DNA of 64,000 nucleotides from Verrucomicrobiota bacterium (lineage in GTDB: Bacteria; Verrucomicrobiota; Verrucomicrobiia; Opitutales; Opitutaceae). A model generated the notes under the pieces. The model searched no databases. It worked only from the letters and a program-made list of their open reading frames with translations, and was not told the DNA's origin. Positions within the stretch are counted from its first letter, which is position 1. Each line of letters opens with the position of its first letter. This document shows positions 47,858 to 62,442 of the stretch, piece by piece. The DNA is taken from assembly GCA_963205455.1 (NCBI GenBank), contig CAUJJL010000128.1, positions 14,685 to 78,684 on the forward strand, read 5' to 3'. Both the position numbers and the translations under genes were made by a program.

Positions 47858-48318
47858 CAGAGGAACGCTCACAATTTTTGCGCAACTGTGCAACCATAAC
47901 CTAGAGCATGTGGGACAAATTGTAGGGTCAGGTATTACATCGTGACTTGATGATGAAGAGAGCAAGCCCAGTTTCATGTGAGCAACCGGGGAATTTGAGG
48001 CTCGCGCCAACCTATTGGTGTCAAGAATCAAGACTCGACATCGTTTGCTTGGCGCCCTCGTGCACTTAAGGGTGGAGCAGGCTTTCCTGTCTGCCATTCC
48101 CCAGCAGGACACAGACACGAATGTCTGTGCGACCCTTCCAATCCGCGGCTTACACTTCCGTTGGTACTTGCTCAACCCCGCCATCTCCGCGAGTTCGGTC
48201 AGGCTGGGCTCCTCAAGAACACCCTACTTGCACCCGGCAAAGCGCGATGACGTGCTATTGGTCCTCTCAATTGCTTCTTTTCGTCGGTCGACATCCCGGT
48301 TCTATTTTCATCCAACAA

Positions 48319-51300
48319 ATGACCCAAGCGACGAACTCTTGCTCACCCGGTCTCTCCACCATCGAAAACCCACAACAAAAATCAGGGGAAACGGCTGCTT
48401 CCTCCGGCCTCCGCGACAATCACAGCCGCGGCAAAGCCGGTGACTTCCTCCGCGTCGCTATTGCCCCCGGCTCCGAGCTTTCCTTCGTCTCGGCCTACTT
48501 CACCGTTCACGCCTATCAGGCCTTGCGCGACGAACTGGAAAGCGCCCGCAAGCTCCGTTTCCTGTTCGGCGAGCCCAAGTTCATCCGCAACATCGAGAAG
48601 GACGGCAAGCAATCCCGACAGTTCAAACTCGCCGAGAGCGGACTCTCGCTCGCCAACCAGCTCTCGCAAAAAAGTCTCGCGAAAGACTGCGCGGACTGGA
48701 TCACCCGGATGGTCGAAATCAAATCCATTGTCCGCGCCGGATTTCTTCACGGGAAGATGTATCACATCCAGGATGGCAAGGTGGCCCAAGCGCTCCTCGG
48801 CAGCTCGAATTTCACCGTCCCGGGCCTCGGACTGCAAGGCTCCGGTAACAACATCGAGTTGAATCTCATTGTTTCCGATGATCGCGACCGCCGCGATCTG
48901 CTCGATTGGTTCAATGCCCTGTGGAACGACACCTCGCTCACCAGCGATGTCAAGGATCAGGTGCTCCAGGAACTTGCTCGCCTCTATTCGAACCAGACGC
49001 CCGAGTTCATCTACTATCTTACGCTCTTTCATCTCTTCCGCCATTATCTCGACAAAGCGGACGATTCCGACAAAGCCCTCACCAAGACCGCGCTCCCTGA
49101 TACGGGCATCTGGAACGCGCTATTCTCCTTTCAGAAGGACGGAGCGAAGGCCGCCATCAACAAGATCCGCGCCACCAACGGCTGCATCCTCGCCGACAGC
49201 GTCGGCCTCGGCAAAACCTACACCGCGCTGGCCGTCATCAAATTCTTTGAGCTGCGCAATGAGCGTGTGCTCGTGCTCTGCCCGAAGAAGCTCCGCCGCA
49301 ATTGGACGGTCTATAAATCCAACAGCACGCTCAATCCTTTCGACAAGGATCGTTTCGGCTATCACGTCCTTTCCCACACCGACCTCGGTCGCGAGTCCGG
49401 CGAGGTGGATGGCCACGATCTGGCCAATTTCAACTGGGGTGCCTACGACCTCGTCGTCATCGACGAATCGCACAACTTCCGCAACAACAAGCAGGCCGTC
49501 CAGCGGCCGGGCGAACCAGAGAAACACAGCCGTTACCAGCGGCTCATGGAGGAGATCATCAAAAAAGGCCAGCGCACCAAAGTCCTCCTCCTCTCCGCCA
49601 CGCCGGTGAATAACCAGCTCGCCGACCTGCGCAACCAGATCTCCTTCATCGCCGGCGGCGATGTCACCCGTGACGCGGAGGCGGACGCCGCGTTTTCCCG
49701 CAACCTGGAGATCCCATCCGTCAAGGAGACCACTCGCATCGCCCAGGGCCACTTCACCACCTGGTCGAAGAAAAAACCGGAAGAACGCACCACCCGCGAC
49801 CTCCTCCAGAGTATCGGCGGCGATTTTTTCAAGCTGCTCGACGGCCTTAGCATCGCGCGCTCCCGCAGGCAGATCGCCACGTACTATAAGGACGAGATGA
49901 AACGCCTCGGCGGCTTTCCCAAACGCCCCGCGCCGGTGGCGATCCACCCGCCCATCGACCTCGCGGACAAGTTCCTGTCATTCGAAAAACTCGACGAGGA
50001 AATCGGCAAGCTCCGCCTCGCGCTCTACCACCCGACGAGTTTCCTGCGCGACGATCTGCCTGCGCAAGTCCGCGCCACTTATGAAGACAAGATCCTCGGA
50101 GGTTTCACCCAGGAGGGACGCGAACGCATCCTCATCGCCATGATGAAGGTGAACTTCCTCAAGCGCCTGGAAAGTTCCGTGGATTCGTTCCGCCTCACGC
50201 TCCACCGCACGATCGAGAAGATCAACACCCTCGAACAGCGCATCGCCGACTTCCAACTCCACGCGGAAAACCATCCGGAGATTGATTGGGACAACCTTAC
50301 TCCCGACGAAACCGACGACCCCGACGAGGAAACCCGGGACTTCACCATCGGCGGACGCCGCCGCATCCACCTCGCCCACCTCAAGCTCGAAGAATGGCTC
50401 CAGGCCGTGCGCCACGACCGCACCCAGCTCCAGTATCTCCACGAGAAAACCGAGAAGGTGAAACCCGAGCGCGACGCCAAGCTCGCCGAGCTGTGCGCCC
50501 GCATCGAATCAAAGGTCGCCAACCCCAGCATCAACGCCGACGCCAAGCCCATCCGCAAAGTCCTCATCTTCACCGCGTTCGCCGACACTGCGAAATACCT
50601 CCACGACCAGCTTGCCCCCTGGGCCAAGGACCACCTCGGCATTCACAGCGCGCTCATCGTCGGCGACGGGGGCAACCAGACCAGTCTCGGCAGTTCCGAT
50701 TTCGACGACATCCTCACCAACTTCTCACCCGTTTCCAAACGCCGCGCCGAGCAGCCGCGCTTCCCGCATGACGAGGAGATCGACCTCCTCATCGCCACCG
50801 ACTGCATTTCGGAGGGCCAGAACCTCCAGGACTGCGACCTGCTCATCAACTACGACATCCACTGGAACCCGGTCCGCATCATCCAGCGCTTCGGTCGCAT
50901 CGACCGCATCGGCTCCCGCAATGCCACCGTCCAGCTCGTCAACTTCTGGCCCGTCGCCGATCTCGACCGCTACCTCAACGTCAAGCACCGCGTCGAGGCC
51001 CGCATGGCCCTGGCCGACCTCGCCGCCACCCAGACCGACAACCTGCTCGATCCCCAGCAGCTCGACGACCTCATCAGACAGGACCTCCGCTTCCGCAACC
51101 ACCAGCTCAAGCGCCTGAAGGACGAAGTGCTCGACCTTGAGGACTTTTCCGACTCGCCCAGCCTCACCGACTTCTCGCTCGACGAGTTCCGCATCGATCT
51201 CCTCCAGTTCCTCGAAAGCCGCCGCGAGGAACTGGAATCCGCGCCGCTCGGTCTCTACGCGGTCGTTCCGCCAAAGGAGGATCATTGCGTCCGATCCCGC

Positions 51301-51768
51301 CCCGGCGCCCTTTTCTGCTTCCGCAGAGTGGACCAGACGCTCTCGTCAGGTTCCAGGGAAGAGCAGGCAGGATCGCCTGCACCACGCGACTCACAAAACC
51401 TCAACCCGCTCGCCCCGCATTTCCTGATCTACGTCCTGGACGACGGCACCGTCCGTTTCTCCTTCGTCCAGCCTAAGGAAACCCTGCTGCTCCTGCGTGG
51501 CCTTGCCGCCGGGCACCCCACCGCCTTCGAGAAGCTCTGCGATCTCTTCGACGCCCGCACCAAGGACGGCACCGACATGTCCCGCTACGACACCCTCGCG
51601 CGTAGCGCCCTGCGCTCCATCGAGGCCACCTTCCAGAAACGCGCCGCCGCCAGCCTGCTCTCCAGCCGCGGCGGCCTGCTGCCCACCACCGCCGAAACCC
51701 CCACCGCGAATGCGGATGACTGGGAACTCGTCACTTGGCTCGTCGTCTTATCCAGCAATACGGATTGA
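48319..51768 (+). CDS. PLD(HKD)-nuclease domain fused to SNF2/SF2 helicase (restriction-subunit-like)
   Basis: ORF 48121-51768 with a likely ATG at 48319. HKD motif FLHGKMYHIQDG..LLGSSNFT (HGK at 48748-48756). Helicase motifs ILADSVGLGKTYTA (I), DLVVIDESHNFRN (II), LLLSATPVNN (III), LLIATDCISEGQNLQDCDLLINYDIHWNPVRIIQRFGRIDRIGS (V/VI). Confidence 0.9.
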   Translation: MTQATNSCSPGLSTIENPQQKSGETAASSGLRDNHSRGKAGDFLRVAIAPGSELSFVSAYFTVHAYQALRDELESARKLRFLFGEPKFIRNIEKDGKQSRQFKLAESGLSLANQLSQKSLAKDCADWITRMVEIKSIVRAGFLHGKMYHIQDGKVAQALLGSSNFTVPGLGLQGSGNNIELNLIVSDDRDRRDLLDWFNALWNDTSLTSDVKDQVLQELARLYSNQTPEFIYYLTLFHLFRHYLDKADDSDKALTKTALPDTGIWNALFSFQKDGAKAAINKIRATNGCILADSVGLGKTYTALAVIKFFELRNERVLVLCPKKLRRNWTVYKSNSTLNPFDKDRFGYHVLSHTDLGRESGEVDGHDLANFNWGAYDLVVIDESHNFRNNKQAVQRPGEPEKHSRYQRLMEEIIKKGQRTKVLLLSATPVNNQLADLRNQISFIAGGDVTRDAEADAAFSRNLEIPSVKETTRIAQGHFTTWSKKKPEERTTRDLLQSIGGDFFKLLDGLSIARSRRQIATYYKDEMKRLGGFPKRPAPVAIHPPIDLADKFLSFEKLDEEIGKLRLALYHPTSFLRDDLPAQVRATYEDKILGGFTQEGRERILIAMMKVNFLKRLESSVDSFRLTLHRTIEKINTLEQRIADFQLHAENHPEIDWDNLTPDETDDPDEETRDFTIGGRRRIHLAHLKLEEWLQAVRHDRTQLQYLHEKTEKVKPERDAKLAELCARIESKVANPSINADAKPIRKVLIFTAFADTAKYLHDQLAPWAKDHLGIHSALIVGDGGNQTSLGSSDFDDILTNFSPVSKRRAEQPRFPHDEEIDLLIATDCISEGQNLQDCDLLINYDIHWNPVRIIQRFGRIDRIGSRNATVQLVNFWPVADLDRYLNVKHRVEARMALADLAATQTDNLLDPQQLDDLIRQDLRFRNHQLKRLKDEVLDLEDFSDSPSLTDFSLDEFRIDLLQFLESRREELESAPLGLYAVVPPKEDHCVRSRPGALFCFRRVDQTLSSGSREEQAGSPAPRDSQNLNPLAPHFLIYVLDDGTVRFSFVQPKETLLLLRGLAAGHPTAFEKLCDLFDARTKDGTDMSRYDTLARSALRSIEATFQKRAAASLLSSRGGLLPTTAETPTANADDWELVTWLVVLSSNTD

Positions 51769-51798
51769 CGGCAATATGGATTTACGTATGGTTTCCCC

Positions 51799-52077
51799 AT
51801 GAAAACAACCATCGATATTCCCGAGCCGCTTTATAAAAGGGCAAAGATCCGTGCCGTGGAGCGGGGCCAGACGCTCAAACAGCTTGTCCTGATTTCCCTA
51901 GAGCGCGAGCTGGAGGCACCTGAAACTGTCACAGAGGCTCCGACCTCCTACTGGGCCAATCGCAAGCTGCGTCCCGGATACAAAGCCGCGCTCCAGGCCG
52001 GAGCCTTTTCCGGGGGAACGGATTCCACAACCATCATTTCAGAGGATCGCGCTTCGCGGGATGAAGCTCTACTTTGA
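51799..52077 (+). CDS. vapB: Type II antitoxin, VapB-like
   Basis: 92 aa beginning MKTTIDIPEPLYKRAKIRAVERGQTLKQLVLISLEREL. Overlaps the PIN gene by 17 nt. Confidence 0.7.
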   Translation: MKTTIDIPEPLYKRAKIRAVERGQTLKQLVLISLERELEAPETVTEAPTSYWANRKLRPGYKAALQAGAFSGGTDSTTIISEDRASRDEALL

Positions 52078-52513
52078 TTCCAGCTACTTATTTCGCGTTT
52101 ATTCGTGCGAGCCGGGGCATGAAGCCGTGAAAGAGCTGCTTGTTCGGTGCACGGGACTCTTTTCAGCCTGGCACGCCCGCGCAGAATTCTCAGCCATTGT
52201 TTTGCGAAAGCGGCGGGAAGGTAGGGACTCCCCGGAAGATCTCTTTGAGTTGCATGAGCAGTTCCTGGACGAATGTCGCAGCGGGCAGGTGCAGCTGCTG
52301 CCTTTGACGGAGAACGTGTTTCAAGCCATCGAATCCGCGCTGCGCAGCGCTCCCGGCACGACATTTCTCCGGGCTGCGGATGCGATGCACCTCGCCTGTG
52401 CCGCCCAGCACGGCTTCACCGAAGTCTATTCCAATGACCGCCATTTCCTCGCCGCCGCCCCGCTCTTCGGGCTGAAGGGAATCAACATCCTTGGAAAAGA
52501 CGATCCTCAATGA
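52061..52513 (+). CDS. vapC: PIN-domain toxin, VapC-like
   Basis: 150 aa. N-terminal acidic residue in MKLYFDSSYL and C-terminal ..AADAMHLACA..VYSNDRHF, typical of PIN ribonucleases. Confidence 0.8.
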   Translation: MKLYFDSSYLFRVYSCEPGHEAVKELLVRCTGLFSAWHARAEFSAIVLRKRREGRDSPEDLFELHEQFLDECRSGQVQLLPLTENVFQAIESALRSAPGTTFLRAADAMHLACAAQHGFTEVYSNDRHFLAAAPLFGLKGINILGKDDPQ

Positions 52514-52587
52514 GGCCTCGAAATGCCCTTGCCGACACCAATGCCTTGTTTGGCTCCATCCGGGAGGAGGAAGAAGGACGAAATATG

Positions 52588-52605
52588 AAGGATGAAGGAT
52601 GAAGG
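52588..52605. repeat. Left arm of an 18-bp perfect inverted repeat bracketing the four-helix-bundle gene
   Basis: aaggatgaaggatgaagg. Its reverse complement is identical to 52953-52970. It is embedded in a purine-rich GAAGG tract (52565-52610). Confidence 0.9.
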
Positions 52606-52618
52606 AAATGCCGGCCTG

Positions 52619-52951
52619 ATGGAGCGGACGACGGAGTTTGCGCTTCGGATCGTGCGGATGTTTGTCGCGCTGCCGAAGACGGACGAGGCCCGCGTGCTTG
52701 GCAAACAGGTCCTGCGCTCCGGCACCTCCGTCGGCGCCAACTACCGGGAAGCCCGGCGCGCCCGCTCCAAGGGCGAGTTCGTCTCCAAGATCGGCGATTG
52801 CCTCACGGAACTCGACGAATCGAGCTACTGGCTCGAACTCCTCGTGCGCAGCGAAATCGTCCCGGAATCCAAACTCGCCTCCCTCCGGGACGAAAACCAC
52901 CAACTCCTCGCCATCCCCCCAACCATTTCAAAAAAGGCGAAAGGCCAATAA
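52619..52951 (+). CDS. Four-helix-bundle protein (23S rRNA intervening-sequence protein family)
   Basis: ORF 52592-52951 with a likely ATG at 52619. FALRIVRMFVALPKTDEARVLGKQVLRSGTSVGANYREARRARSKGEFVSKIGDCLTELDESSYWLELL matches the family consensus. Confidence 0.85.
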   Translation: MERTTEFALRIVRMFVALPKTDEARVLGKQVLRSGTSVGANYREARRARSKGEFVSKIGDCLTELDESSYWLELLVRSEIVPESKLASLRDENHQLLAIPPTISKKAKGQ

Positions 52952-52952
52952 C

Positions 52953-52970
52953 CCTTCATCCTTCATCCTT
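52953..52970. repeat. Right arm of the 18-bp perfect inverted repeat
   Basis: ccttcatccttcatcctt starts 2 nt after the stop of the four-helix-bundle gene. It continues as a CCTTC-rich tract to about 52990. Confidence 0.9.
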
Positions 52971-52994
52971 TTGCCTTCAACCTTTTCCCCACCC

Positions 52995-55900
52995 ATGTCC
53001 GACCTCCGCAAAGCCATCCAATCCCGCCTCCAGGCCTTCACCACCCAGCCCCTGCGGCAGGCCTCGCTGGCCCTGCTCGACACCCTCGGCTACCGCTCGG
53101 AGCGCTCCCTGCCCATCGATACGTTGACGGCGCTTCAAGAGCAGCTCGATCCCGGCCATCTCCTCCGCGAGGAAAACGCCCACCTTTCCCTCTGGAAATC
53201 CGTTCACCTCCTTTTCCAGCTCACCAAATCCGAACTTGCCCCTTCCGCCGGCAACGATCTGGGTTTGAGCCTTGAATCCCCTTTCGAGCTTCGCCGCGAT
53301 GGCAAGGTCATCGAGTCCTACCTCTTCTTCGCGGTCGATCTCCATCCGCGCTCCGACGGCCAGCCCCACAACCGCGATATCTACGGCACCATCACCCGCG
53401 CCCTCAACCGCCTTGTCCCCCAGCCGGTGCTTGTGCTCTTTCGCGAGGATTCGCGCCTCTCCCTCGCCGTCATCAACCGCCGTCGCAACCTACGCGACGG
53501 CACCCGCGACGTGCTCACCCGCGTCTCCCTCATCCGCGACATCGACTCCCGCTCGCCCCACCGCGCCCACCTCGACCTGCTCCAGCGCTTTTCCCTGCCG
53601 TCCCTCTCCGCCGAGTCCGCCATCCGCACCTTTGCCGATCTCGATACCGCCTGGCAGAAAATCTTCTCCGTTCAGGAACTCAAGGACAGCTTCTACAAGT
53701 CCCTCGCCGCCTGGTTCCGCTGGGCCATCACGGAGATCCAGCTCGCACAGCTCCCCGACCAAACGCCGGACACCGCTAAAAACCGCGACCGCGCCACCCA
53801 GGAGTTCACCGTCCGCCTCATCTGCCGCACGCTCTTCACCTGGTTCCTCAAGGAAATGCGGCTCATCCCCGCCGAACTCCTCGAACTCTACGACACCGCC
53901 GAAACCCGCCGCGTCCTCACCAAAAACGGCGACTCCCGCGACTTCCTCGACGGCAACCACTACTACCGCGGCATCCTGCAAAACATCTTCTTCCAGTCCC
54001 TCAACCGCCCGATGGACCAGCGTCGGAAATCCGGCGCGGAAGCCGCCAACGACCGCGAGGTCATCGCGCCCGATCTCAAAAAGCTTGCCTACGTCGCCAA
54101 GCAGAACCTGCCCGAAACCTTCGACTACTCGCTCTTCGATCGCATTCCCTACCTCAATGGCGGCCTTTTCGACGCCCTGCCCGAGGACAACCTGAAATTC
54201 ACCCACGAGGAGGGCAACGCCTTCCGCGTGCCCAACAAGCTCTTCTACGCCCGCCGCGAGGACGGCTACACGCTCGCAGGCGAGGGGCGCCGCGCCGCCG
54301 CCCAGCCGATGGAAGGCCTCAACCGCATCTTCGACCGCTACCGCTTCACCGTCACCGAGAACACCCCGTTGGAAGAGGATGTCGCCCTCGATCCCGAACT
54401 CCTCGGCCTCGCCTTCGAAAACCTGCTCGCCGAGATTGATCCCGACGACGAGGCCGCCGCCCAGTCCGCCCGCAAGGCCTCCGGCTCCTACTACACCCCG
54501 CGCCGCATCGTGGACTACATGGTCAACGAGGCGCTCCACCTCCACCTCCGCACCGAGTTCGAGAAAGGCGGAGCCTCCTCCGCCGATCTCCAGCTCCTCA
54601 GCCAGCTCTGCTACGAACTCGATCCCCACGCCGATTTCTCGCCCATCGCCGCCCGTGTCGTGGATGTGCTGGATGCCGTGCGCGTGCTCGATCCCGCCTG
54701 CGGCTCCGGCGCCTTCCCCATGGGCATGCTCCACCGCATGGTCGGGCTGCTCCACCGCGTCGATCCCGACAACGAATACTGGAAACAGCGCCTGCTCGAC
54801 CGCCTGCCCGCCGCCATGCGCGACGACGCCCGCCGGGGCATGGAAGGCAAAAGCTACAACTACCTCCGCAAGCTCGGCCTCATCCAGAAAAACCTCTACG
54901 GCCTCGACATCCAGCCGCTCGCCGCCCTCATCGCCAAGCTGCGCTTCTTCCTCACCCTCGTCGTCGAGCAGGATGTCCACCTCAACGATCCCGCCCACAA
55001 CTACGGCCTGGCCTCGCTGCCCAATCTCGAAACCAACCTCCTCTGCGCCAATACCCTGGCCGATGCCGGCCACGGCCTGCTCAGCGGCCCCGTGCTCGCC
55101 GACCTCCGCCGCGCCCGCGAGGAATACTACCAGCCCGGCGCCACCCGCGACCGCCGCGACGCACTCGCCACCGCCATCGGGGAAAAACTCGCCACCCTCT
55201 TCCCCGGCTTCGCCGAAAAGACCAAGGGTGTGAAGCCCTCCGGGGCCACCCAGCTGGACCGCGAGAACATGCGCCGCCAGCAGGATGCCATCTGGCTCGC
55301 TGAGTGGTTCAAGCACGCCACCCTCGCCGCCCCCTTCTTCAATGTGGAAACCTTCTTCCCGGAGCTGGTTGATTCTTCATCCTTCCACCTTCATCCTTCA
55401 CCCTTCCACATCGTCATCGGCAATCCGCCCTACGGCGGCACCAAGATCGACGACGAGGTGAAGACCTCCCTCGGCCTCGGCTCCAAAGACCCCTACGGCG
55501 CCTTCATCGCCCGCTTCCTCGGCGATCCCTCGCGCCCCGCCCCGCTCGCCGAGGGCGGCGTGCTCGCCTACATCGTCAGCGACACCTTCATGACCATCAA
55601 GACGCACCGCCCGCTGCGCGGGCAGATGCTGCGGCACCGCGTCCACAAGATGATCCGCGTCGCCGGCGACACCTTCAAGGCCACCGTCAACTGCGCCGTC
55701 ATCCTCTGCCAGCGCGGCGCGGCCCCGGAGGCCCACACTTGCCAGATGGCCGACCTCACCAATGTCTCCATCTGGGACCAGCACGAGCGCTTCCTCCACC
55801 TGCTCTACCAAACCGAGGGCTTCGCCCGCCGCGCCAACGTCTCCAACCAGACTTACGCGATCTACCACTACAAACAAAACCTGATCCAAACCAACTCGAA

Positions 55901-57683
55901 CCTGCCCTTCTTCGTCGCCTCGCCGAAGCTGTTCGCACTGATGAATGATACCACCGCTCCGGTGCGGCATGAGACCATCGGGGGAAAACGCGTGCCCGTC
56001 CGCACGGTCACGCTCAATGGCAATGCGGTGCGCTTGGTGAAACTCGGGGACATCGCCGAGGTGAAAGTCGGCCTGCAAACCGGCGACAATGACGCCTACC
56101 TCTTTCAGAATCCCGATGCCCGAGGCTCCTATCGCTCCATCGAGGATTATCGTGAGTTTCTTCTCGCCGATGCTGACCTTGAACGAATCCGCTCGGATGA
56201 GAACCTCCGCATGGAGGTGATCCAGCACGGCATCTCAAAAGACGACCGGCAATCCCCACGTTACTTCGGCGGCAGATATATCGCGCATTATGATAAGGGT
56301 GGGGAGTCGGAAAGTGAAGACGGATGGATGCCGAATTACTTCGTTCCAACCAACTACTATATTGATTGGAGCGAATGGGCGGTGAACCGAATGAAGTCGC
56401 TCACAACGAGAACGAGAAACCGTGAACAAGGTAGAACAGGTGGTGATGATTCACTAGCCTCACGCTTTCAAAATGCCGATTCGTATTTTGTCGGAGGAAT
56501 AACGTTCTCGTCCCGTGGTGTATATGCGCCGACCTTTCGTCAAAATGCGGGTGCTTGCTATGACAAGGAAAGCAGCGGGGTTTTCGTAGGGGGAAATGTT
56601 GATAATGTGCTCGCGGTGGTCGCGTCCCGGTTTGCGAAACACCTCTTGAAAGGCTTTCTACAACAAACGGTCTCGATGGATGTGGATGCGCTAAAGGAAC
56701 TAGTCTTGCCTGACAGTATGCCTATGGCTGCCAGTCTTGTTGCTTCAATCATCGGAGTGCAGCGGACCAATCCCCGTTACGACTACGCCAGCAACGAGCA
56801 GCTGGAGATCGACCGACTCGTCTATGCCGCCTACGGCTTGAACGACGGCGACATCAAGGAGGTGGAGAACTGGTATGCCCGCCGCTATCCCAAACTGGCC
56901 GAGGCCCAGCGCCGCAACCTCGCCGCCAGGCTGGGCCGGACCGAGGAGCAGTTGCTCGACCGCCCGGTGCTCCACTTCTACTGCGACGAATCCTGCCACC
57001 TGCCCGCCGACGGCGAGCCGAACATGCTGCTCGGCCTGCTGGCCTGTCCGGCGGAGCGGGTCGCCGCCAGCCATGCCGCGCTGCGCGCCCTCGCCGCCGC
57101 CAGCGGCCTGGAACCCCACTTCGAGGCCAAGTGGACCAAGCTCTCGCCCGCCCGCCTGCCACACTACCTCGCCCTGCTCGACTGGTTCTTCGCCCCGGAG
57201 CAGGAGGCGCTGGCCTTCCGCGCCCTCGTCCTGCCGGACAAGGCCCGCCTCTACGCCGCGCTGCCCGCCACCGCCCGCGACCACCTCTACTACCGCCTCT
57301 ACTACCAGCTCCTGCGCGGCGCGGTGGAGCCCGAGAACCGCCACCGCATTTTCCTCGACACCAAGGACACCCGCGGCCGCGAAAAGGTCGCCAAACTGCG
57401 CGACCTCCTCCAGCGCGACGCCGGCGACAGCCTGCAAACCGCCCGGGCCATCCAGGACCTGCAGCTCGTCCGCTCCCACGAGATCGCCCTGCTCCAGCTC
57501 ACCGACCTCTTCCTCGGCGCCATCGCCTACGCCCGCCGCGGCTCCACATCCAGCCCCGCCAAACTCGCCTTCGTCCGCGCCCTCGAAGCAAGAATCGGCG
57601 CCTCCCTCACCGCCGACACCCCGCCCGGCAGCGCCAAATTCCTCATCGCCACCGAATACGACCAGGACGCCCTCTTGCTCTGA
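52995..57683 (+). CDS. PglX/MmeI/Eco57I-like N6-adenine DNA methyltransferase with TaqI_C-like specificity region, fused to a C-terminal DUF3800 domain
   Basis: ORF 52638-57683. The in-frame ATG at 52995 (MSDLRKAIQ..) follows the four-helix-bundle gene. Motifs IPYLNGGLFD, SGSYYTPRRIVDYMV, VLDPACGSGAFP (about 54684-54716), NLYGLDIQPLAALIAKLRFFL, VIGNPPYGG (NPPY at 55422-55433), GLQTGDNDAYLF, IDRLVYAAYGLNDGDIKEVE. From about 56964: VLHFYCDESCH ... ALLQLTDLFLGAIAY (DUF3800 hallmarks). Confidence 0.85.
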   Translation: MSDLRKAIQSRLQAFTTQPLRQASLALLDTLGYRSERSLPIDTLTALQEQLDPGHLLREENAHLSLWKSVHLLFQLTKSELAPSAGNDLGLSLESPFELRRDGKVIESYLFFAVDLHPRSDGQPHNRDIYGTITRALNRLVPQPVLVLFREDSRLSLAVINRRRNLRDGTRDVLTRVSLIRDIDSRSPHRAHLDLLQRFSLPSLSAESAIRTFADLDTAWQKIFSVQELKDSFYKSLAAWFRWAITEIQLAQLPDQTPDTAKNRDRATQEFTVRLICRTLFTWFLKEMRLIPAELLELYDTAETRRVLTKNGDSRDFLDGNHYYRGILQNIFFQSLNRPMDQRRKSGAEAANDREVIAPDLKKLAYVAKQNLPETFDYSLFDRIPYLNGGLFDALPEDNLKFTHEEGNAFRVPNKLFYARREDGYTLAGEGRRAAAQPMEGLNRIFDRYRFTVTENTPLEEDVALDPELLGLAFENLLAEIDPDDEAAAQSARKASGSYYTPRRIVDYMVNEALHLHLRTEFEKGGASSADLQLLSQLCYELDPHADFSPIAARVVDVLDAVRVLDPACGSGAFPMGMLHRMVGLLHRVDPDNEYWKQRLLDRLPAAMRDDARRGMEGKSYNYLRKLGLIQKNLYGLDIQPLAALIAKLRFFLTLVVEQDVHLNDPAHNYGLASLPNLETNLLCANTLADAGHGLLSGPVLADLRRAREEYYQPGATRDRRDALATAIGEKLATLFPGFAEKTKGVKPSGATQLDRENMRRQQDAIWLAEWFKHATLAAPFFNVETFFPELVDSSSFHLHPSPFHIVIGNPPYGGTKIDDEVKTSLGLGSKDPYGAFIARFLGDPSRPAPLAEGGVLAYIVSDTFMTIKTHRPLRGQMLRHRVHKMIRVAGDTFKATVNCAVILCQRGAAPEAHTCQMADLTNVSIWDQHERFLHLLYQTEGFARRANVSNQTYAIYHYKQNLIQTNSNLPFFVASPKLFALMNDTTAPVRHETIGGKRVPVRTVTLNGNAVRLVKLGDIAEVKVGLQTGDNDAYLFQNPDARGSYRSIEDYREFLLADADLERIRSDENLRMEVIQHGISKDDRQSPRYFGGRYIAHYDKGGESESEDGWMPNYFVPTNYYIDWSEWAVNRMKSLTTRTRNREQGRTGGDDSLASRFQNADSYFVGGITFSSRGVYAPTFRQNAGACYDKESSGVFVGGNVDNVLAVVASRFAKHLLKGFLQQTVSMDVDALKELVLPDSMPMAASLVASIIGVQRTNPRYDYASNEQLEIDRLVYAAYGLNDGDIKEVENWYARRYPKLAEAQRRNLAARLGRTEEQLLDRPVLHFYCDESCHLPADGEPNMLLGLLACPAERVAASHAALRALAAASGLEPHFEAKWTKLSPARLPHYLALLDWFFAPEQEALAFRALVLPDKARLYAALPATARDHLYYRLYYQLLRGAVEPENRHRIFLDTKDTRGREKVAKLRDLLQRDAGDSLQTARAIQDLQLVRSHEIALLQLTDLFLGAIAYARRGSTSSPAKLAFVRALEARIGASLTADTPPGSAKFLIATEYDQDALLL
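55374..55409 (+). repeat. In-frame CCTTC-rich tract (2 x CTTCATCCTTC) inside the methyltransferase, directly upstream of NPPY
   Basis: tcttcatccttccaccttcatccttcacccttccac encodes SSSFHLHPSPFH. It shares the 11-mer core with the right arm at 52954-52964 and is complementary to GAAGGATGAAG in the left arm. Confidence 0.8.
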
Positions 57684-57703
57684 GTTGACACCCGCCCCAG
57701 AGC

Positions 57704-58231
57704 ATGAGCGCGAACTTCCCCGACTGGCTGCCGAAAATCATCCCCTTCGATGGCGACTGGGACGACTACCTTGGACGACTCTACGCCATCTTCGAAGGTG
57801 ACTTCAAAAACACTTCCCTCGAATATGCCGGTCGCCGCGTCTGGTATGATTCCCGCCTCGGCGATGACAGTCGCCATGGCTTTGAGGAAGGGTTCTGGCA
57901 CCTCACCACGAAGGACGAAATCATCTACGACCAAGTCCGGAGAACGAAACGAAAGGAACGAGGCCCCGATTTCCGAAGGGCGGAGAGGCTCGCTTGGTGC
58001 CGCGCCGTCATCCAGCATGCCTCGGATCCGGCGGTGCTTTGCTGGGCCTACGAGGAGGAGTTTGGCCAGATGCGCGAATACCTCTGGCTCAAGGAGCATG
58101 ACTACGTGGTTATCCTCCGCCCGTGGCAGACCCGAAAATTTGGCACCGTGTGGATGATCACGACCGCCTACCACCTCGACTACCCCAACGCCAAAACCAA
58201 CCTGCTCTCGAAATATGAGGCCCGAAAATGA
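57704..58231 (+). CDS. Hypothetical protein (175 aa), no family recognised
   Basis: ORF starts 21 nt after the methyltransferase stop. Non-repetitive sequence (..DWDDYLGRLYAIFEGDF.., ..FWHLTTKDE.., ..WMITTAYHLDYPN..). Confidence 0.6.
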   Translation: MSANFPDWLPKIIPFDGDWDDYLGRLYAIFEGDFKNTSLEYAGRRVWYDSRLGDDSRHGFEEGFWHLTTKDEIIYDQVRRTKRKERGPDFRRAERLAWCRAVIQHASDPAVLCWAYEEEFGQMREYLWLKEHDYVVILRPWQTRKFGTVWMITTAYHLDYPNAKTNLLSKYEARK

Positions 58232-58233
58232 CA

Positions 58234-58253
58234 AACCCCGCCGTGGCGGGGTT
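58234..58253 (+). terminator. GC-rich hairpin after the 175-aa gene (terminator-like, no clear U-tract)
   Basis: aaccccgcc-gt-ggcggggtt, a 9-bp perfect complement located 3 nt after the stop codon. Confidence 0.4.
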
Positions 58254-58334
58254 CGATCTCCTGCTACACATGGCAGCTGAGCTGATGGAACCCTACGCCC
58301 GCCGTCCTCGTTTGCAAGGATTTATTTTTCCCCC

Positions 58335-58748
58335 ATGACCACCCGCCACTGGCTCATCAAGTTTGCGCCCTTCCGCACCTCGTGGGAGCAGATTGTCGCC
58401 CGCGGCACTTTCACCCCGCGCGGCATCCGCAGCCCGGAGGCGCGCAAGCACCTGCGCGCCATGCGTCTCGGCGATCCCGTCCTCTTCTACCGCAGCCAGC
58501 AGGATCAGGCCGTCGTCGGCCTCCTGGAAGTCACCCGCGAAGCCTACCCGGACCCCACCAGCGCCGACCCGCAATGGCTGACATGTGACTTCGCCCCCGC
58601 GGCTTCTTTTCCTTCCCCCGTCTCCCTGGAAACGATCAAGGCGACGCAGGCGCTCTCGGACCTTCCGCTCGTTCGCCGTCCCCGCCTTTCCGTGATGCCG
58701 TTGAGTGCCACCGCATTCACAATACTTCAAACACTCGCCCAAGCATGA
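58335..58748 (+). CDS. EVE (PUA-like, DUF55) domain protein
   Basis: 137 aa. RHWLIKFAP.., ..ARKHLRAMRLGDPVLFYRSQQDQAVVGLLEVTREAYPDPT.., ..PVSLETIK.., ..RRPRLSVMPL match the EVE layout. The stop overlaps the next start (ATGA). Confidence 0.85.
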   Translation: MTTRHWLIKFAPFRTSWEQIVARGTFTPRGIRSPEARKHLRAMRLGDPVLFYRSQQDQAVVGLLEVTREAYPDPTSADPQWLTCDFAPAASFPSPVSLETIKATQALSDLPLVRRPRLSVMPLSATAFTILQTLAQA

Positions 58749-59995
58749 CTCCACCTCTCTTCACCGCATTGTCCGCGCGCCGCATGAGCGGTCTGATTCG
58801 GGCTGCCCGGCAGCGCGTTTGTTATGCCGCGCCCGGCCTGCACGAGGAAACCGCTGCACTGGCAGCCCTGAAGTCGACGAGCTCGTCCATTCCCATCACG
58901 GTGAGTTTGGATTTCGACGAGCGTACGCTGCGCTTAGGCTACGGAAGTCTCCCGGCGGTGGAAACGCTGCGCGGCGCGGGCATCGAGCCGTCGCACTCGC
59001 CCGGATTCCGCAGCGCGGTGTTGATCGTGGACGATGCGGGTTGGGTCTTCACGCGGAAGGCTCTCTACCTCGAACCCGAACCGCAAAGCGATGAGACACC
59101 GAATGCCATCCGTCTGACTTCCGGCCAGGTGCGGGAAATCCTGCTGCGCCTTTCCCCCGCCGCGCGGGCAGAGGCCGTCGCCGCCGCAAGCACCCCCGAA
59201 GAAGCCGCGCGGCTGGAGTCCATCCCGCTGGAAACCTGCGAACTGCCGCTGGGCAAGGAGCAGTTCGCGCAGGTGAAGCAGGCCATCGAAGCCGCACCGC
59301 CGGTGAAGTTTGACGTGGCACGGCAGGTGCGAGTTTTCGAGCCCTACCTCCAATATGTGGAACTTTCGCTCACCGGTGCCGCCGTGCAGCGCCACCGAGT
59401 GCGCATTCCGAAATCACTGCAAAACCTCGGTGCCTCCAAAGACCTCGAAGGCAAGCTCAAGACGACGTTCGACCTCATTGAGAAAGGCAGCTCCCTTTCC
59501 TCCAAGGTGCTGGAAGACGAACTGAACGAGATCCGCAAAAACTTCATGCCGTCGCTCGGCAAGGACCACGGGAGGGTCGTCTTGAAAGCCGCCAAGCCAA
59601 CGCTGCTGGCGCGACTCGAGGAACTGCGCAAGAAGCTGGAGACGCATCAGAATAAGGTCGAAAGCGAGCTCCAGAAAAAGCTCGATGAATCGAAGAAGCA
59701 GGTTGTGGACTACTACTTGCCGCTCGCCCGCGCTAACCCGCCGGATGCTCTCGTCGGCTCGATGCTCAAGGTGACGGATAATGACATCAGGCAATGGATC
59801 GAGTCCGAGCTGTCCGACGTGTTTCCCGACGCGAAAGAACTGATTCACAAGATGACGCTGGAGGACCGCTATAAGGACGTGACCTTCGAGACACTAAACC
59901 GCGCCGATTTCCTCAAGTCAGTGAAGGCCGCCTTCCCGCGTATTGATTGGGACAAACCTTTCCACGATTTCAAGGCGGCAGGGGAACTGAAGTAA
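58745..59995 (+). CDS. Hypothetical protein (416 aa): N-terminal PLD-like scaffold without HxK, C-terminal K/E-rich coiled-coil-like region
   Basis: Translationally coupled to the EVE gene. The N-terminus ..LIRAARQRVCYAAPGL..IPITVSLDFDE..LRGAGIEPSHSPGFRSAVLIVDDAGWVFT resembles a PLD/NgoFVII-type fold with FRS where HxK is expected (pattern-level inference only). The C-terminus is LEELRKKLETHQNKVESELQKKLDESKKQ. Confidence 0.6.
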   Translation: MTPPLFTALSARRMSGLIRAARQRVCYAAPGLHEETAALAALKSTSSSIPITVSLDFDERTLRLGYGSLPAVETLRGAGIEPSHSPGFRSAVLIVDDAGWVFTRKALYLEPEPQSDETPNAIRLTSGQVREILLRLSPAARAEAVAAASTPEEAARLESIPLETCELPLGKEQFAQVKQAIEAAPPVKFDVARQVRVFEPYLQYVELSLTGAAVQRHRVRIPKSLQNLGASKDLEGKLKTTFDLIEKGSSLSSKVLEDELNEIRKNFMPSLGKDHGRVVLKAAKPTLLARLEELRKKLETHQNKVESELQKKLDESKKQVVDYYLPLARANPPDALVGSMLKVTDNDIRQWIESELSDVFPDAKELIHKMTLEDRYKDVTFETLNRADFLKSVKAAFPRIDWDKPFHDFKAAGELK

Positions 59996-60000
59996 GATGA

Positions 60001-60303
60001 CCGGAAACGCGTGTCCTTGTCGTGAAAGTGGAACGGAGGTCGAACGCGCTGGTGTATGAGCTGTATTTCCCGGAGGAGGTGAAGGGAAGTTTGAAGGAGG
60101 AAGGAGGAAGTTGGAAGGGGAGTCTGTTCGACCTGGTCGAGGCCGCCGGCCTGCCGGACGTGACCGCCCTGCCGGAGCCGGACTGCCTCCCGCGCCTGCG
60201 CCGGAAGTTCGAGGAACTCCACGACGGCGCCCACCCGCTGCGCCGCGCCCTCGGCCAGCTCCAAACCCTCGAAACCATCCGCATCATCGAAGGCAGGGCG
60301 TGA
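60001..60303 (+). pseudogene. 3' remnant resembling the C-terminus of an Eco57I/type IIG-like methyltransferase
   Basis: The frame opens right after the TGA at 59998. ..RSNALVYELYFPEEV.. parallels IDRLVYAAYGLNDGDIKEVE of the large methyltransferase. There is no N-terminal catalytic part. The tail (LRRKFEELHDGAHPLRRALGQLQTLETIRIIEGRA) lies in the 124-bp duplication. Confidence 0.4.
60073..60120 (+). repeat. In-frame GAAGG-rich tract inside the methyltransferase remnant
   Basis: gaggaggtgaagggaagtttgaaggaggaaggaggaagttggaagggg encodes EEVKGSLKEEGGSWKG. It has the same purine-strand flavour as the left arm of the four-helix-bundle cassette but is less exact. Confidence 0.6.
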
Positions 60304-60308
60304 ACACG
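60185..60308 (+). repeat. 124-bp direct repeat, copy A
   Basis: By my alignment it is identical to 61461-61584 except G at 60300 versus A at 61576. Confidence 0.85.
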
Positions 60309-61460
60309 CCCTTCCCATCGCCGTCGATGCCTCGATACGCCGGAAAACACGGCGCGCCGAGGATGACCGCCTTGCCAGCGCCGCAGGCGTTCCATACTTC
60401 AGTGCCAACACGCGTTCCAACCTCGGCCCATTCTTCAACGCCAACACACGATCCAGCCCCAGCCCTTTCATCAGCGCCAACGGCGCGCTCCAACCCCAGC
60501 CCAGGGCAACGCCCTGGGTATTCGGCACCCAAGACCATCCAAGCCCTGAAAGGGCGACCCAAGGCCTGTTCCAATCCCATGCACAACACCCGATCCCCCC
60601 TTGTTTCGGTGCGGGTCTTTCTGGACCGCCACGGCCTGGCCTGCACGAACGGTCTGTGGGGGGCTGAATCGCCCCTTCAGGGCTTGAAATGGTGGGTGAC
60701 CTATGTTCCCAGGGCGTTGCCCTGGGCTGGCATGATTCGCCCCGTCGGGGCTGAGTCCACGCCCATTCCTCAGCGCCAACGGCGCGCTTTAACCCTGGCC
60801 CAGGGCAACGCCCTAGGTCCACAACGGCGCGATCCAACCCCAGCCCGGGGCAAGGCCCTGGGTCCACAACGCCAAAATCGATCCTAGCCCTGAAGGGGCG
60901 ATTCAAACCATGCCCCAATCGCTCGCCCGCCTTTACGTCCATCTCATTTTCAGCACCAAGCACCGCGAACGCGTCATCACCGACGCCGTTCGTCCCTCCC
61001 TGCACGCCTACATGGCCAGGGTGCTGCAAAATTTTCGCTGCCCGCCCGTGCTCATCAACTCCGTCGAAGACCACATCCACATCCTCTTTGAACTGGGGCG
61101 CACCGTCTTCATCAGCCAGGCCGTCGAGGAGGCCAAAACCACCGCCTCGAAATGGATCAAGACCCAGGGGCCGGCCTTCGCCGGGTTCGCGTGGCAATCG
61201 GGCTACGGGGCCTTCTCCGTCAGCGAATCGAATGTATCGGCCGTGCGGGAATACATTGCCGGGCAGGCCGAACACCACCGGCACAAATCATTTCAGGAGG
61301 AATACCGGGCATTTCTCGAACGTCACGGCGTGGCTTTTGATGAACGGTATGTATGGGATTAGCCCGCCCCTTCAGGGCTTGAAATGGTGGGTGACCTATG
61401 TTCCCAGGGCGTTGCCCTGGGCTATCATGGGCCGCCCCTTTGGGGCTGGATCCATGCACC
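60309..61460. mobile_element. RAYT-like transposase plus REP/REPIN-type palindrome array inserted between the two 124-bp repeat copies
   Basis: At least 5 copies of the 19-nt hairpin CCCAGGGC-nnn-GCCCTGGG (60500-60518, 60708-60726, 60799-60817, 60844-60862 degenerate, 61403-61421). A 59-nt identical direct repeat lies at 60670-60728 and 61365-61423. A 19-nt perfect inverted repeat pairs 60666-60684 with 60886-60904. Confidence 0.8.
60910..61362 (+). CDS. IS200/IS605-family Y1 (HUH) transposase, REP-associated (RAYT)-like
   Basis: 150 aa. LYVHLIFSTKHRE, EDHIHILF (HUH), FAWQSGYGAFSVSESNVSAVREYIAGQAEHH. The ORF is bracketed by a 15-nt perfect inverted repeat, agccctgaaggggcg (60886-60900) and cgccccttcagggct (61365-61379). 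Confidence 0.85.
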   Translation: MPQSLARLYVHLIFSTKHRERVITDAVRPSLHAYMARVLQNFRCPPVLINSVEDHIHILFELGRTVFISQAVEEAKTTASKWIKTQGPAFAGFAWQSGYGAFSVSESNVSAVREYIAGQAEHHRHKSFQEEYRAFLERHGVAFDERYVWD

Positions 61461-61584
61461 GCCTCCCGCGCCTGCGCCGGAAGTTCGAGGAACTCCACGA
61501 CGGCGCCCACCCGCTGCGCCGCGCCCTCGGCCAGCTCCAAACCCTCGAAACCATCCGCATCATCGAAGGCAGGGCATGAACACG
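61461..61584 (+). repeat. 124-bp direct repeat, copy B (contains the start codon of the ArdC-like gene)
   Basis: See copy A. An ATG lies at 61576-61578, where copy A has GTG. Confidence 0.85.
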
Positions 61585-62442
61585 ATGGAAACCCAACCCG
61601 ATCTCTTCGCCGCACAGGATGAGGAAGTCGCTCGCTCCCTGCTGGACAAGTTGCTGGAAGACTCGAGGCTTTACCGAGCCAGCAAGGATTACCTTGAGCT
61701 GCTGGAGTTCACCAAGCGCCTGCGGAACTTCGCGCCCTTCAACGCCATGCTGCTCCATGTGCAGAAGCCCGGCCTGACCTACGCGGCTTCGGCCTACGAC
61801 TGGGAGTCGCGCTTCGGCCGCCGTCCGAAGGAGAACGCCCGCCCGCTGCTCATCCTTTGGCCATTCGGCCCGGTGGCGCTCGTGTATGACGTGCAGGAAA
61901 CCGAGGGGAAGGCACTGCCCCGGGACGTGGACAGCTTCTTTGCCCGTGGAGCCATCACCTCGGAACGGATTCCCGAGTTGATCAAAAAGATGGCACGTCG
62001 GAACATCGCCTGCGCCTGCTTCGACGGCGGGGATGCAAACGCAGGCTCCATCCGCGTTGTGAATCGTGCGACGAAGGAGGAAGACGCCTCGTATTCCATG
62101 CAGGTGAACCGGAATCACTCCGCGCCTGTTCAATTCGTCACCATCGCGCACGAACTGGCACACCTGTTTCTTGGCCACCTCGGCCCGGACAAGAATCTCA
62201 ACATCCCCGAGCGCCCGCGCCCCGACCATGTGCAGGAAGAACTGGAAGCCGAATCCGTCGCCTACCTCGTCTGCGCCCGCAACGGCGTGGAGTCGAAGTC
62301 ACAAACCTATCTGACAAAATTTGTGGAGAAAAACACGACCGTTGAGAAACTCGACATCTACCAGGTCATGCGCGCCGCCGGACAGATCGAAACCCTGCTT
62401 GGCCTCTCATCGCACACCCGTTACGAGAAGCCTCCCCGGTGA
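61576..62442 (+). CDS. HExxH zincin metallopeptidase-domain protein, ArdC-like (N-terminal ssDNA-binding-like region + C-terminal protease-like region)
   Basis: ORF 61384-62442, but the first 64 codons read through REP/duplicated DNA. Likely ATG at 61576 (MNTMETQPDLF..). ..FAPFNAMLLHVQKPGLTYAASAYDWESRFGRRPKENARPLLILWP.. resembles the ArdC N-domain. IAHELAHLFLGH plus QEELEAESVAYLVCARNGV resemble the ArdC-type protease motifs. Confidence 0.55.
   Translation: MNTMETQPDLFAAQDEEVARSLLDKLLEDSRLYRASKDYLELLEFTKRLRNFAPFNAMLLHVQKPGLTYAASAYDWESRFGRRPKENARPLLILWPFGPVALVYDVQETEGKALPRDVDSFFARGAITSERIPELIKKMARRNIACACFDGGDANAGSIRVVNRATKEEDASYSMQVNRNHSAPVQFVTIAHELAHLFLGHLGPDKNLNIPERPRPDHVQEELEAESVAYLVCARNGVESKSQTYLTKFVEKNTTVEKLDIYQVMRAAGQIETLLGLSSHTRYEKPPR

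Follow-up and report, generated by a model that had tools for sequence, protein, structure and literature searches.

The eight-gene array

We analyzed a 64,000-nucleotide stretch of DNA from a Verrucomicrobiota bacterium of the family Opitutaceae (assembly GCA_963205455.1, contig CAUJJL010000128.1, positions 14,685 to 78,684), hereafter the window, and focused on eight co-directional genes, P1 to P8, on its plus strand between positions 48319 and 59995. The core of this array is a helicase-nuclease gene and a methyltransferase gene, which represent a widespread and apparently unnamed two-gene restriction-modification (R-M)-like system. Open reading frame (ORF) listing and translation placed all eight genes at the coordinates given in the original prediction, an earlier reading of the same letters that had proposed a candidate defense system here. 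That reading gave gaps of 0-100 nucleotides (nt), which is essentially right: the spacings from P1 to P8 are, in order, 30, -17, 78, 43, 20, 103 and -4 nt, a range of -17 to 103 nt with two overlaps. Hidden Markov model (HMM) searches with Pfam, NCBIfam and PADLOC confirmed the proposed PLDc_2, SNF2, Helicase_C, PIN, four-helix-bundle, Eco57I/N6_Mtase, DUF3800 and EVE assignments. The motif positions given earlier proved exact (HGK at 48748 and NPPY at 55422), and the NGGLF, GSYYTP and DPACGSG motifs were likewise found in P5. The longest ORF for P1 opens at 48121; because homologues align from about 48391, the start at 48319 is plausible. The genes, with lengths in amino acids (aa), are as follows.

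48319..51768, plus strand: P1, predicted R subunit, PLD-SNF2 helicase-nuclease (Pfam PLDc_2, SNF2-rel_dom, Helicase_C and ResIII; PADLOC C3a139)
51799..52077, plus strand: P2, 92-aa VapB-like putative antitoxin, apparent guest (position and sequence pattern)
52061..52513, plus strand: P3, PIN-domain VapC-like toxin, apparent guest (Pfam PIN, E 3.6e-13)
52592..52951, plus strand: P4, four-helix-bundle protein of the 23S rRNA intervening sequence (IVS) protein family, apparent guest (PF05635, E 5e-17; TIGR02436, E 1.6e-23)
52995-57683, plus strand: P5 as a whole, 1562 aa, methyltransferase::DUF3800 (Eco57I/MmeI_Mtase/N6_Mtase and C-terminal DUF3800)
52995..56970, plus strand: P5 residues 1-1326, predicted M/S subunit (Pfam, PADLOC; best PDB profile match BrxX 9ewz)
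56973..57683, plus strand: P5 residues 1327-1562, DUF3800 (RNase H-like) domain, equivalent to PDC-M04A (PF12686, E 9e-8; PDC-M04A, E 1.9e-61)
57704..58231, plus strand: P6, 175-aa DUF3800 partner, equivalent to PDC-M04B (PADLOC, E 7.5e-40)
58335..58748, plus strand: P7, stand-alone EVE (PUA-like modified-base reader) protein (PF01878, E 7e-31)
58745..59995, plus strand: P8, 416 aa, unannotated family tied to methylation-based defense operons (homologue contexts; AlphaFold2 and Foldseek)

For comparison, we used about 170 related loci overall, including the 79 closest methyltransferase loci, which were obtained by scanning a genome collection with an alignment of P5 homologues. A scan of the array for promoters and terminators gave background-level signals that were uninformative on operon structure.

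The helicase-nuclease and methyltransferase pair

P1 consists of an N-terminal PLD domain (PLDc_2, residues 54-202) followed by SNF2 and Helicase_C domains. The PLD domain contains a single HxK...GSxN signature, whose H144 is encoded at nt 48748, and the SWI2/SNF2 ATPase motifs GLGKT and DESH are encoded at 49204 and 49462, respectively. The sole strong PADLOC model for the core pair is C3a139 ("HKD+Snf2"), which covers the helicase (E 4.6e-113 for P1 and 5.9e-136 for a Nitrospirota relative), and no NCBIfam family reaches its cut-off for the pair. A PDB sequence search with P1 returned generic SNF2/RapA matches only and no MtsD-like entry. Relatives carry the RefSeq labels "SNF2-related protein" and "N-6 DNA methylase", and a tblastn search of the methyltransferase against plasmids yielded three distant matches, again with generic RefSeq names.

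Upstream of its DUF3800 domain, P5 comprises a family-specific N-terminal domain (about residues 1-290), a helical linker, a gamma-class N6-adenine methyltransferase domain (DPACGSG at 54690, then NPPY) and a PglX-like C-terminal recognition region. A PDB sequence search using P5 alone gave no match. A profile search identified BREX BrxX/PglX (9ewz) as its nearest solved relative (E 2.4e-10), colinear with P5 across motif I, NPPY and the C-terminal region. A TaqI_C-like target recognition domain had been proposed for P5; none was detected at E<=0.01, and the C-terminal recognition region aligns to BREX BrxX/PglX instead.

The N-terminal 300 or so residues of P5 bear a weak, sub-threshold resemblance to DUF4391. 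A phmmer search of 1.84 billion representatives turned up 1248 proteins with this domain at E<=1e-3, and 760 when the threshold was E<=1e-10. In the 150 top matches listed, the domain is always N-terminal, and the proteins are mostly about 1200-1370 aa long, with a few of about 1550-1610 aa and shorter ones that are probably truncated. An AlphaFold model of residues 1-460 (pLDDT 82, pTM 0.74) produced nothing significant, nuclease-like or other, in a Foldseek search of the PDB (best E 0.18), and the region contains no conserved (D/E)xK motif. Since the N-terminal domain has no nuclease-like fold match, the PLD domain of P1 is probably the only nuclease of the pair. We also considered P5 as a self-contained Type IIG/IIL (MmeI-like) enzyme and rejected this assignment: PADLOC IIG profiles align from the methyltransferase region onward, and no N-terminal nuclease was found.

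The two genes travel together. A P1 homologue lies directly upstream of, and co-directional with, the methyltransferase gene in 67 of the 79 loci, as determined by tblastn and clustering, the rest being mostly truncated contigs; adjacency at this frequency is far beyond chance. The core-pair loci are spread over Verrucomicrobiota, Bacteroidota, Cyanobacteria, Chloroflexota, Desulfobacterota, Planctomycetota, Bacillota, Spirochaetota and Fusobacteriota. Full-length P5 homologues form more than 100 clusters with 53-100% identity, nearly all with the DUF3800 fusion; they come mostly from Verrucomicrobiota, and also from Lentisphaerota, Sumerlaeia, Nitrospirota, Pirellulaceae and Nitrosospira. Across the related loci, GxGKT and DExH are each present in 58/58 full-length helicases, HxK...GSxN is kept in about 57 of the 58, and NPPY is kept in 66/66 methyltransferases.

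In more distant clades of this two-gene system (L055, L056, L061, L066, L069, L074 and L079; L083, L084, L099, L117 and L138), the methyltransferase or the P8 gene is followed by an OLD/ABC-type ATPase of about 530-590 aa. This ATPase belongs to AAA_15 and shows weak similarity to AriA, GajA, PtuA and mad3.

The DUF3800 fusion and its 175-aa partner

The C-terminal 236 residues of P5 match PADLOC component PDC-M04A. P6 had been called an orphan; although it has no Pfam match, it belongs with PDC-M04B. PDC-M04 calls for adjacent A and B components, and here the two lie 20 nt apart. As in PDC-M04, both components match their HMMs strongly, and the genes are adjacent and, in relatives, translationally coupled; unlike in PDC-M04, component A is the C-terminal domain of a methyltransferase rather than a free protein of about 233 aa. 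PDCs are untested candidates, nominated because their genes are embedded in Type I R-M, BREX and DISARM operons ("guilt by embedding"; bioRxiv 10.1101/2024.01.29.577857).

The methyltransferase::DUF3800 fusion was seen in more than 100 protein clusters. Seven residues (D1331, E1332, E1377, D1455, D1458, Q1501 and D1504) are invariant in 14 aligned fusions, in agreement with the DE...QxxD signature described for DUF3800 (PMC7736814), which has been classified as RNase H-like (PMC7736814, PMC13594972). We fetched 20 fusion loci, 19 of them with downstream sequence, and called the presence or absence of P6 and of EVE by tblastn and HMM searches. In 19/19, a P6 homologue follows straight after the methyltransferase gene (HMM E<=1e-51), mostly with a 4-nt overlap; none was found in the other 59 loci (0/59). 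P6 is far more variable than its DUF3800 partner when L001-L017 are compared with the window (in L002, DUF3800 is 87% identical and P6 39%), and its sequences form two subtypes whose only common features are WLP, (F/Y)WH, R...W and a T-x-(Y/F) motif at the C-terminus.

The same two components also occur elsewhere. In Iodobacter fluviatilis, a free-standing PDC-M04 pair sits between hsdS and hsdR of a Type I R-M operon, and in Acidithiobacillus caldus the pair is found alone on an integrative and conjugative element (ICE), with no R-M genes adjoining. In a close relative, a Verrucomicrobia metagenome-assembled genome (L171, 4038-10899), an IS630-type DDE_3 transposase gene splits the methyltransferase (1253 aa) from the DUF3800 gene (285 aa). 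PDC-M04 is thus an autonomous module that is here covalently attached to the methyltransferase. An Rfam scan of 51.7-60.4 kb for the DUF3800-associated RNA motifs of Weinberg et al. found none at gathering score or at E<=1.

The EVE gene and the variable slot

An EVE gene follows the methyltransferase or P6 in 34 of the 36 closer-clade loci with enough downstream sequence, and its start often overlaps or abuts the methyltransferase stop in these loci. EVE-bearing loci include Bacteroidota, cyanobacterial and spirochaete ones without DUF3800. In contrast, EVE is present in just 2 of the 40 remaining, mostly more distant, loci. Given this difference, we regard EVE as a third, clade-specific component of the R-M-like unit. 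Stand-alone EVE proteins have been reported by Bell et al. beside a different operon, of SNF2-nuclease, methyltransferase and DUF499 genes (PMC7641849).

P2 to P4 occupy the slot between the helicase and methyltransferase genes, and this slot is variable. It holds an insert in 36 of the 67 loci and is empty (gap <=100 nt) in 31. Its occupants are mutually unrelated and include Schlafen/AlbA_2-type proteins, PDC-S02/DUF1016 nucleases, RhuM, ORF6N-like proteins and toxin-antitoxin (TA) pairs; the slot in L171 contains two TA pairs and another insertion sequence (IS). Embedded or backup effectors have been put forward as a concept (bioRxiv 10.1101/2024.01.29.577857; PMC12839542), and the classes of gene found in the slot have been reported as such effectors of BREX, BREX-related (BR) and R-M operons (PMC12839542).

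The PIN gene P3 overlaps the 92-aa P2 by 17 nt. Naming P2 VapB fits this position and its sequence pattern; P2 matches no antitoxin HMM, so that the name finds no HMM support at E<=0.01. Partial matches to P2 were found in the same slot in L007 and L034, the P4 family in the same slot in L013 and L089 only, and P3 is not conserved across related loci. To judge from these distributions, the VapB/PIN and four-helix-bundle genes are guests and not conserved partners. The conserved neighbors of the methyltransferase are the helicase, EVE, DUF3800 and the 175-aa protein.

The 416-aa protein

P8, whose start overlaps the EVE stop by 4 nt, has no match in Pfam, NCBIfam, PADLOC or PHROGs. Described earlier as an orphan, it belongs to a large conserved family with more than 1500 homologues of 54-99% identity over the full length, all of which are labeled "hypothetical" and lack a Pfam domain. 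The contexts of this family were obtained from look-ups and a metagenome scan. Relatives of P8 directly follow the PLD-SNF2 and Eco57I-type methyltransferase genes of another clade, overlapping the methyltransferase stop (L083-L089, L099, L117 and L138), and others end Type I operons in the order hsdM-hsdS-hsdR-P8. A P8 relative follows BrxL of a BREX locus in L101, and relatives follow DISARM-like genes in L142 and L112. Among the 48 P8 loci with at least 3 kb of upstream sequence, 30 have a Type I or PLD-SNF2/methyltransferase neighbor, a count that leaves aside the BREX and DISARM cases. P8 is best described, from these contexts, as a recurrent accessory of methylation-based systems. As for its proposed role as a conserved partner within the array, the family does recur with such systems, but it is absent from close relatives and has many different methylation-based partners.

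In two loci (L150:5025-7517 and L154:351-2843), an 830-aa ORF joins half of a Type I HsdS (Methylase_S) to a full P8-family protein. This HsdS::P8 protein is a second fusion that links an accessory gene to an R-M specificity or modification subunit.

Foldseek searches of the PDB and BFVD with the AlphaFold2 model of P8 consistently gave PLD-superfamily proteins as top matches (PLD, NucT, Zucchini, PLD3, FAM83 DUF1669, TrmBL2 and poxvirus F13). At the position of HxK(x)4D, P8 reads F88-R89-S90...D96, with no conserved His or Lys. Since the HxK position reads F-R-S, the domain is probably a pseudo-PLD. We rejected the idea that P8 is mainly phage-borne, as only four matches were found among 2.9 million viral contigs.

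Locus history and flanking sequence

Further features lie downstream of the array.

60013..60303, plus strand: relic of another methyltransferase gene, of the L083 type, of which the final ~90 codons are left (tblastn, 56% identical to the last 88 aa of the L083 methyltransferase)
60182-60308 and 61458-61584: 127-nt direct repeat, 98% identical, bracketing REP-like (repetitive extragenic palindromic) elements and a Y1 transposase gene
60910-61362: Y1 (IS200/RayT-like) transposase gene

The L083 methyltransferase is a Nitrospirota enzyme of the type that precedes P8 in that locus. The direct repeat covers the methyltransferase tail, whose last 127 nt are duplicated 1276 nt downstream. Methyltransferase-tail fragments likewise follow P8 in L095, L096, L115 and L116. 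The relic, the repeat/transposase cluster and the independently varying identities of P1 and P5 to their homologues indicate that the array was assembled by cassette exchange.

REP-like palindromes surround the Y1 gene between 60455 and 61425, for example CCCAGGGCGTTGCCCTGGG, which is present in at least 5 copies in both orientations. The only Rfam match at gathering score in the window is an Acido-Lenti-1 small RNA (sRNA) at 61403-61447; because it coincides with one REP-like unit, this "sRNA" looks like a REP-type repeat here. A 352-aa ORF at 61384-62442 is probably chimeric, and the gene likely starts at 61576, in an ATGA overlap with the duplicated methyltransferase tail, and ends at 62442. 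The product of 61576-62442 is an M78/IrrE-type zincin, with weak similarity to MPTase-PolyVal and to a PHROG "anti-restriction protein", encoded beside an R-M-like locus.

The flanks are otherwise ordinary, with DUF1800, DUF1501 and dicarboxylate symporter genes upstream and the Y1 transposase and M78-type peptidase genes downstream. There are no tRNA genes in the window. GC skew is strongly negative (-0.18 to -0.30) over the plus-strand coding DNA at 48000-58000 of the window, and the cumulative skew turns at about 43 kb; an odd base composition or a foreign origin may lie behind this.

Interpretation and alternatives

We favor, with a probability of about 0.68, a composite locus in which a two-subunit, ATP-dependent Type III/ISP-like R-M core is combined with an EVE reader and with add-on or backup effector modules. 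Of the two possibilities that the original prediction raised, this corresponds to a split Type ISP/III-like pair decorated with extra genes, which is the better description. From the gene content, the integrity of domains and motifs and the patterns of conservation, we infer the following mechanism. Adenines in asymmetric sites are the substrate of gamma-class NPPY enzymes of the PglX/Eco57I type; P5 would recognize the target and mark host DNA by N6-adenine methylation, probably on one strand of an asymmetric site. P1, as the restriction subunit, would translocate and cut unmarked DNA. PLD nucleases with a single HKD motif (BfiI, SauUSI and MtsD) work as dimers that form one active site, and in R-M enzymes with SF2 motors (Type I, III, ISP and MANTIS) the sites must communicate. 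Because a single-HKD nuclease must dimerize, cleavage probably needs two motor-nucleases to meet, for example from inverted sites; dimers with a single PLD site have been described for MtsD and SauUSI, and inverted-site dependence for MANTIS (bioRxiv 10.64898/2026.09.23.753747). EVE would most likely act as a modified-base reader, either extending restriction to hypermodified phage DNA or helping to read the self mark. By analogy with PrrC-EcoprrI, PDC-M04 would most likely be an effector of the second-line or abortive kind whose activity is tied to the state of the R-M complex. VapC may be another second-line effector, and P8 a pseudo-PLD/coiled-coil add-on whose relatives recur next to many systems based on methylation.

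That the fusion is in frame is suggestive, though no proof, of a DUF3800 nuclease that monitors the R-M complex. A more specific, joint proposal goes further: the intact R-M complex would hold DUF3800 and its 175-aa partner inactive until a phage anti-restriction factor disables the complex and so frees them, and the P8 family would serve methylation-based immunity in general as an accessory (Type I, BREX, DISARM and the system described here). Such a factor might be a DNA mimic or an inhibitor of the methyltransferase or the helicase, and proteolysis might have the same effect. We regard this proposal as tentative and on the whole doubtful. If it were true, the fusion would be a natural Rosetta stone, indicating that embedded effectors physically monitor their host R-M systems.

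Several observations weigh against the composite reading or parts of it. From locus to locus, the identity of P1 to its homologues does not correlate with that of P5 (in L001, P1 is 54% and P5 about 80% identical; in L003, P1 is 83% identical), which shows module shuffling. With the MANTIS loader and DUF3780 both absent, the two-gene core may operate in another way or depend on host factors. PDC-M04 occurs without any R-M in L173, so the fusion need not imply regulatory coupling. As for P8, it is missing from 78 of the 79 closest loci, the exception being L011, where it lies 8 kb away; 12-13 of the sampled P8 loci have no recognized defense neighbor; and the E-values of its Foldseek matches are marginal (8e-4 to 3e-2).

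An alternative is that the locus is mainly modification-dependent (Type IV-like), with EVE detecting modified bases in phage DNA and bringing in the PLD-SNF2 nuclease, in the manner of SauUSI-like enzymes, and with a methyltransferase that would be regulatory or antitoxin-like and would not set the restriction target. The EVE gene in 34 of 36 close-clade loci is consistent with this, EVE domains are Type IV specificity modules, and Bell et al. proposed such a dual logic for a related SNF2-nuclease/methyltransferase/EVE operon (PMC7641849). In addition, the related PLD-SF2 nuclease MtsD has been reported to be SauUSI-like in structure (bioRxiv 10.64898/2026.09.23.753747). However, the core pair stands without EVE in about 40 more distant loci, and the universally conserved partner is a methyltransferase with a recognition region. 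We consider this alternative unlikely.

It is also rather improbable that only the helicase-methyltransferase pair is functional, and that EVE, PDC-M04, P8 and the others are independent selfish or defense cassettes. The ICE-borne PDC-M04 pair and a P8 relative in a metabolic context are in keeping with such independence, as is a recombinogenic locus with its methyltransferase relic, REP/Y1-transposase cluster and the IS insertion in L171. Yet the in-frame DUF3800 fusion persists across more than 100 protein clusters, its catalytic residues intact, the starts of EVE and P8 overlap the preceding stop codons, and EVE is retained clade-wide (94%).

The second possibility of the original prediction, a distinct multi-gene system, would make all eight genes obligate partners in one integrated defense system. 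The co-directional, tightly spaced arrangement, in which two gene pairs overlap and no internal terminator stands out convincingly from the background, would fit such a system, as would the recurrence of TA pairs in the same slot of the close relative L171. Contradicting it, the VapB, PIN and four-helix-bundle genes are absent from nearly all of the 79 loci and unrelated genes fill their slot elsewhere, P8 is absent from 78 of the 79, and PDC-M04 and P8 are each found alone or in the company of other systems, PDC-M04 also without this R-M; we judge it very improbable. Hardly credible is BREX-like non-degradative exclusion or epigenetic regulation, with a PLD domain that does not cut DNA: although the methyltransferase is PglX-like and in vitro DNA cleavage was not reconstituted for the related MtsD (bioRxiv 10.64898/2026.09.23.753747), HxK...GSxN is kept in about 57 of 58 helicases, and PglZ and BrxC are absent.

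Comparison with known systems

The composite locus resembles several named systems in part. The original prediction held that neither BREX nor DISARM is complete here, and this is borne out: their markers are absent or below cut-off, and no tool names the whole set. No PglZ, BrxC/DUF499, DUF3780 or DUF1998 gene was found among the eight proteins or in the flanks within 43-64 kb of the window. For type 1 BREX, PglZ, BrxC and BrxL are without a match among the eight proteins or the flanks, and P5 scores 71 bits against the NCBIfam PglX model, whose cut-off is 500. A literature search on PDC-M04, DUF4391 and the combination of PglX, SNF2 and PLD found no description of the two-gene system.

With class 1 DISARM, the locus has in common an SNF2 helicase (DrmD-like), a PLD nuclease (DrmC-like) and an Eco57I-type adenine methyltransferase (DrmMI-like). 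It differs in having neither DrmA nor DrmB (DUF1998/MZB) and in combining PLD and SNF2 in one protein; the score with the DrmD model is 150.9 bits, where 610 is the cut-off, and the match to DrmMI reaches only E 1.7e-7.

The logic of Type ISP (LlaGI/LlaBIII) and Type III enzymes, in which a methyltransferase-plus-recognition module works with a helicase-like motor and a nuclease, is also found here, and hemimethylated asymmetric sites and a two-site requirement would be expected. Unlike Type ISP, a single polypeptide with an Mrr-family nuclease, the system here is split between P1 and P5 and has a PLD nuclease. Type III systems differ in their beta-class methyltransferase Mod and in Res, which carries a PD-(D/E)xK nuclease, whereas the pair described here has an SNF2-family motor and a gamma-class PglX-like methyltransferase. 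As in PrrC-EcoprrI and other R-M systems with embedded backup effectors, a latent nuclease would be encoded in, or attached to, an ATP-dependent R-M operon. Unlike PrrC-EcoprrI, to which there is no sequence relation, the coupling here is a gene fusion, and activation by anti-restriction proteins is an analogy only.

Closest among the described systems are the Type-2 BREX-related ones (BR, MtsABCD), specifically MANTIS (Gao_RL). Their restriction effector, too, is an SF2/SNF2 ATPase with an HKD/PLD nuclease at its N-terminus, its partner is an N6-adenine methyltransferase responsible for recognition, and reader modules and embedded effectors are frequent nearby. These systems are DUF499-centered, and their HKD-SF2 nuclease and methyltransferase require the AAA+ loader and DUF3780 (PMC12839542; bioRxiv 10.64898/2026.09.23.753747); in MANTIS, methylation itself needs both (bioRxiv 10.64898/2026.09.23.753747). 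In contrast, the locus has neither the DUF499 AAA+ ATPase (MtsA) nor DUF3780 (MtsB), P1 scores 126 bits against the 1100 cut-off of phospholipD_antiphage (the MtsD-type NCBIfam model), and the methyltransferase is a PglX/Eco57I-type enzyme of about 1300 aa with its own N-terminal domain.

The interest of the locus lies in this loader-less core family, in the methyltransferase::DUF3800 fusion and in the P8 family. The fusion offers a concrete case for embedded effectors being functionally wired to R-M operons, and P8 represents a widespread, unannotated candidate accessory of methylation-based defense. If active, the core would be a minimal relative of MANTIS, BR and DISARM that operates without an AAA+ loader, and it could reveal the way in which a PglX-type methyltransferase and a PLD-SNF2 motor-nuclease tell self from non-self in the absence of BrxC or DUF499, a role for which the family-specific N-terminal domain of P5 is the obvious candidate.

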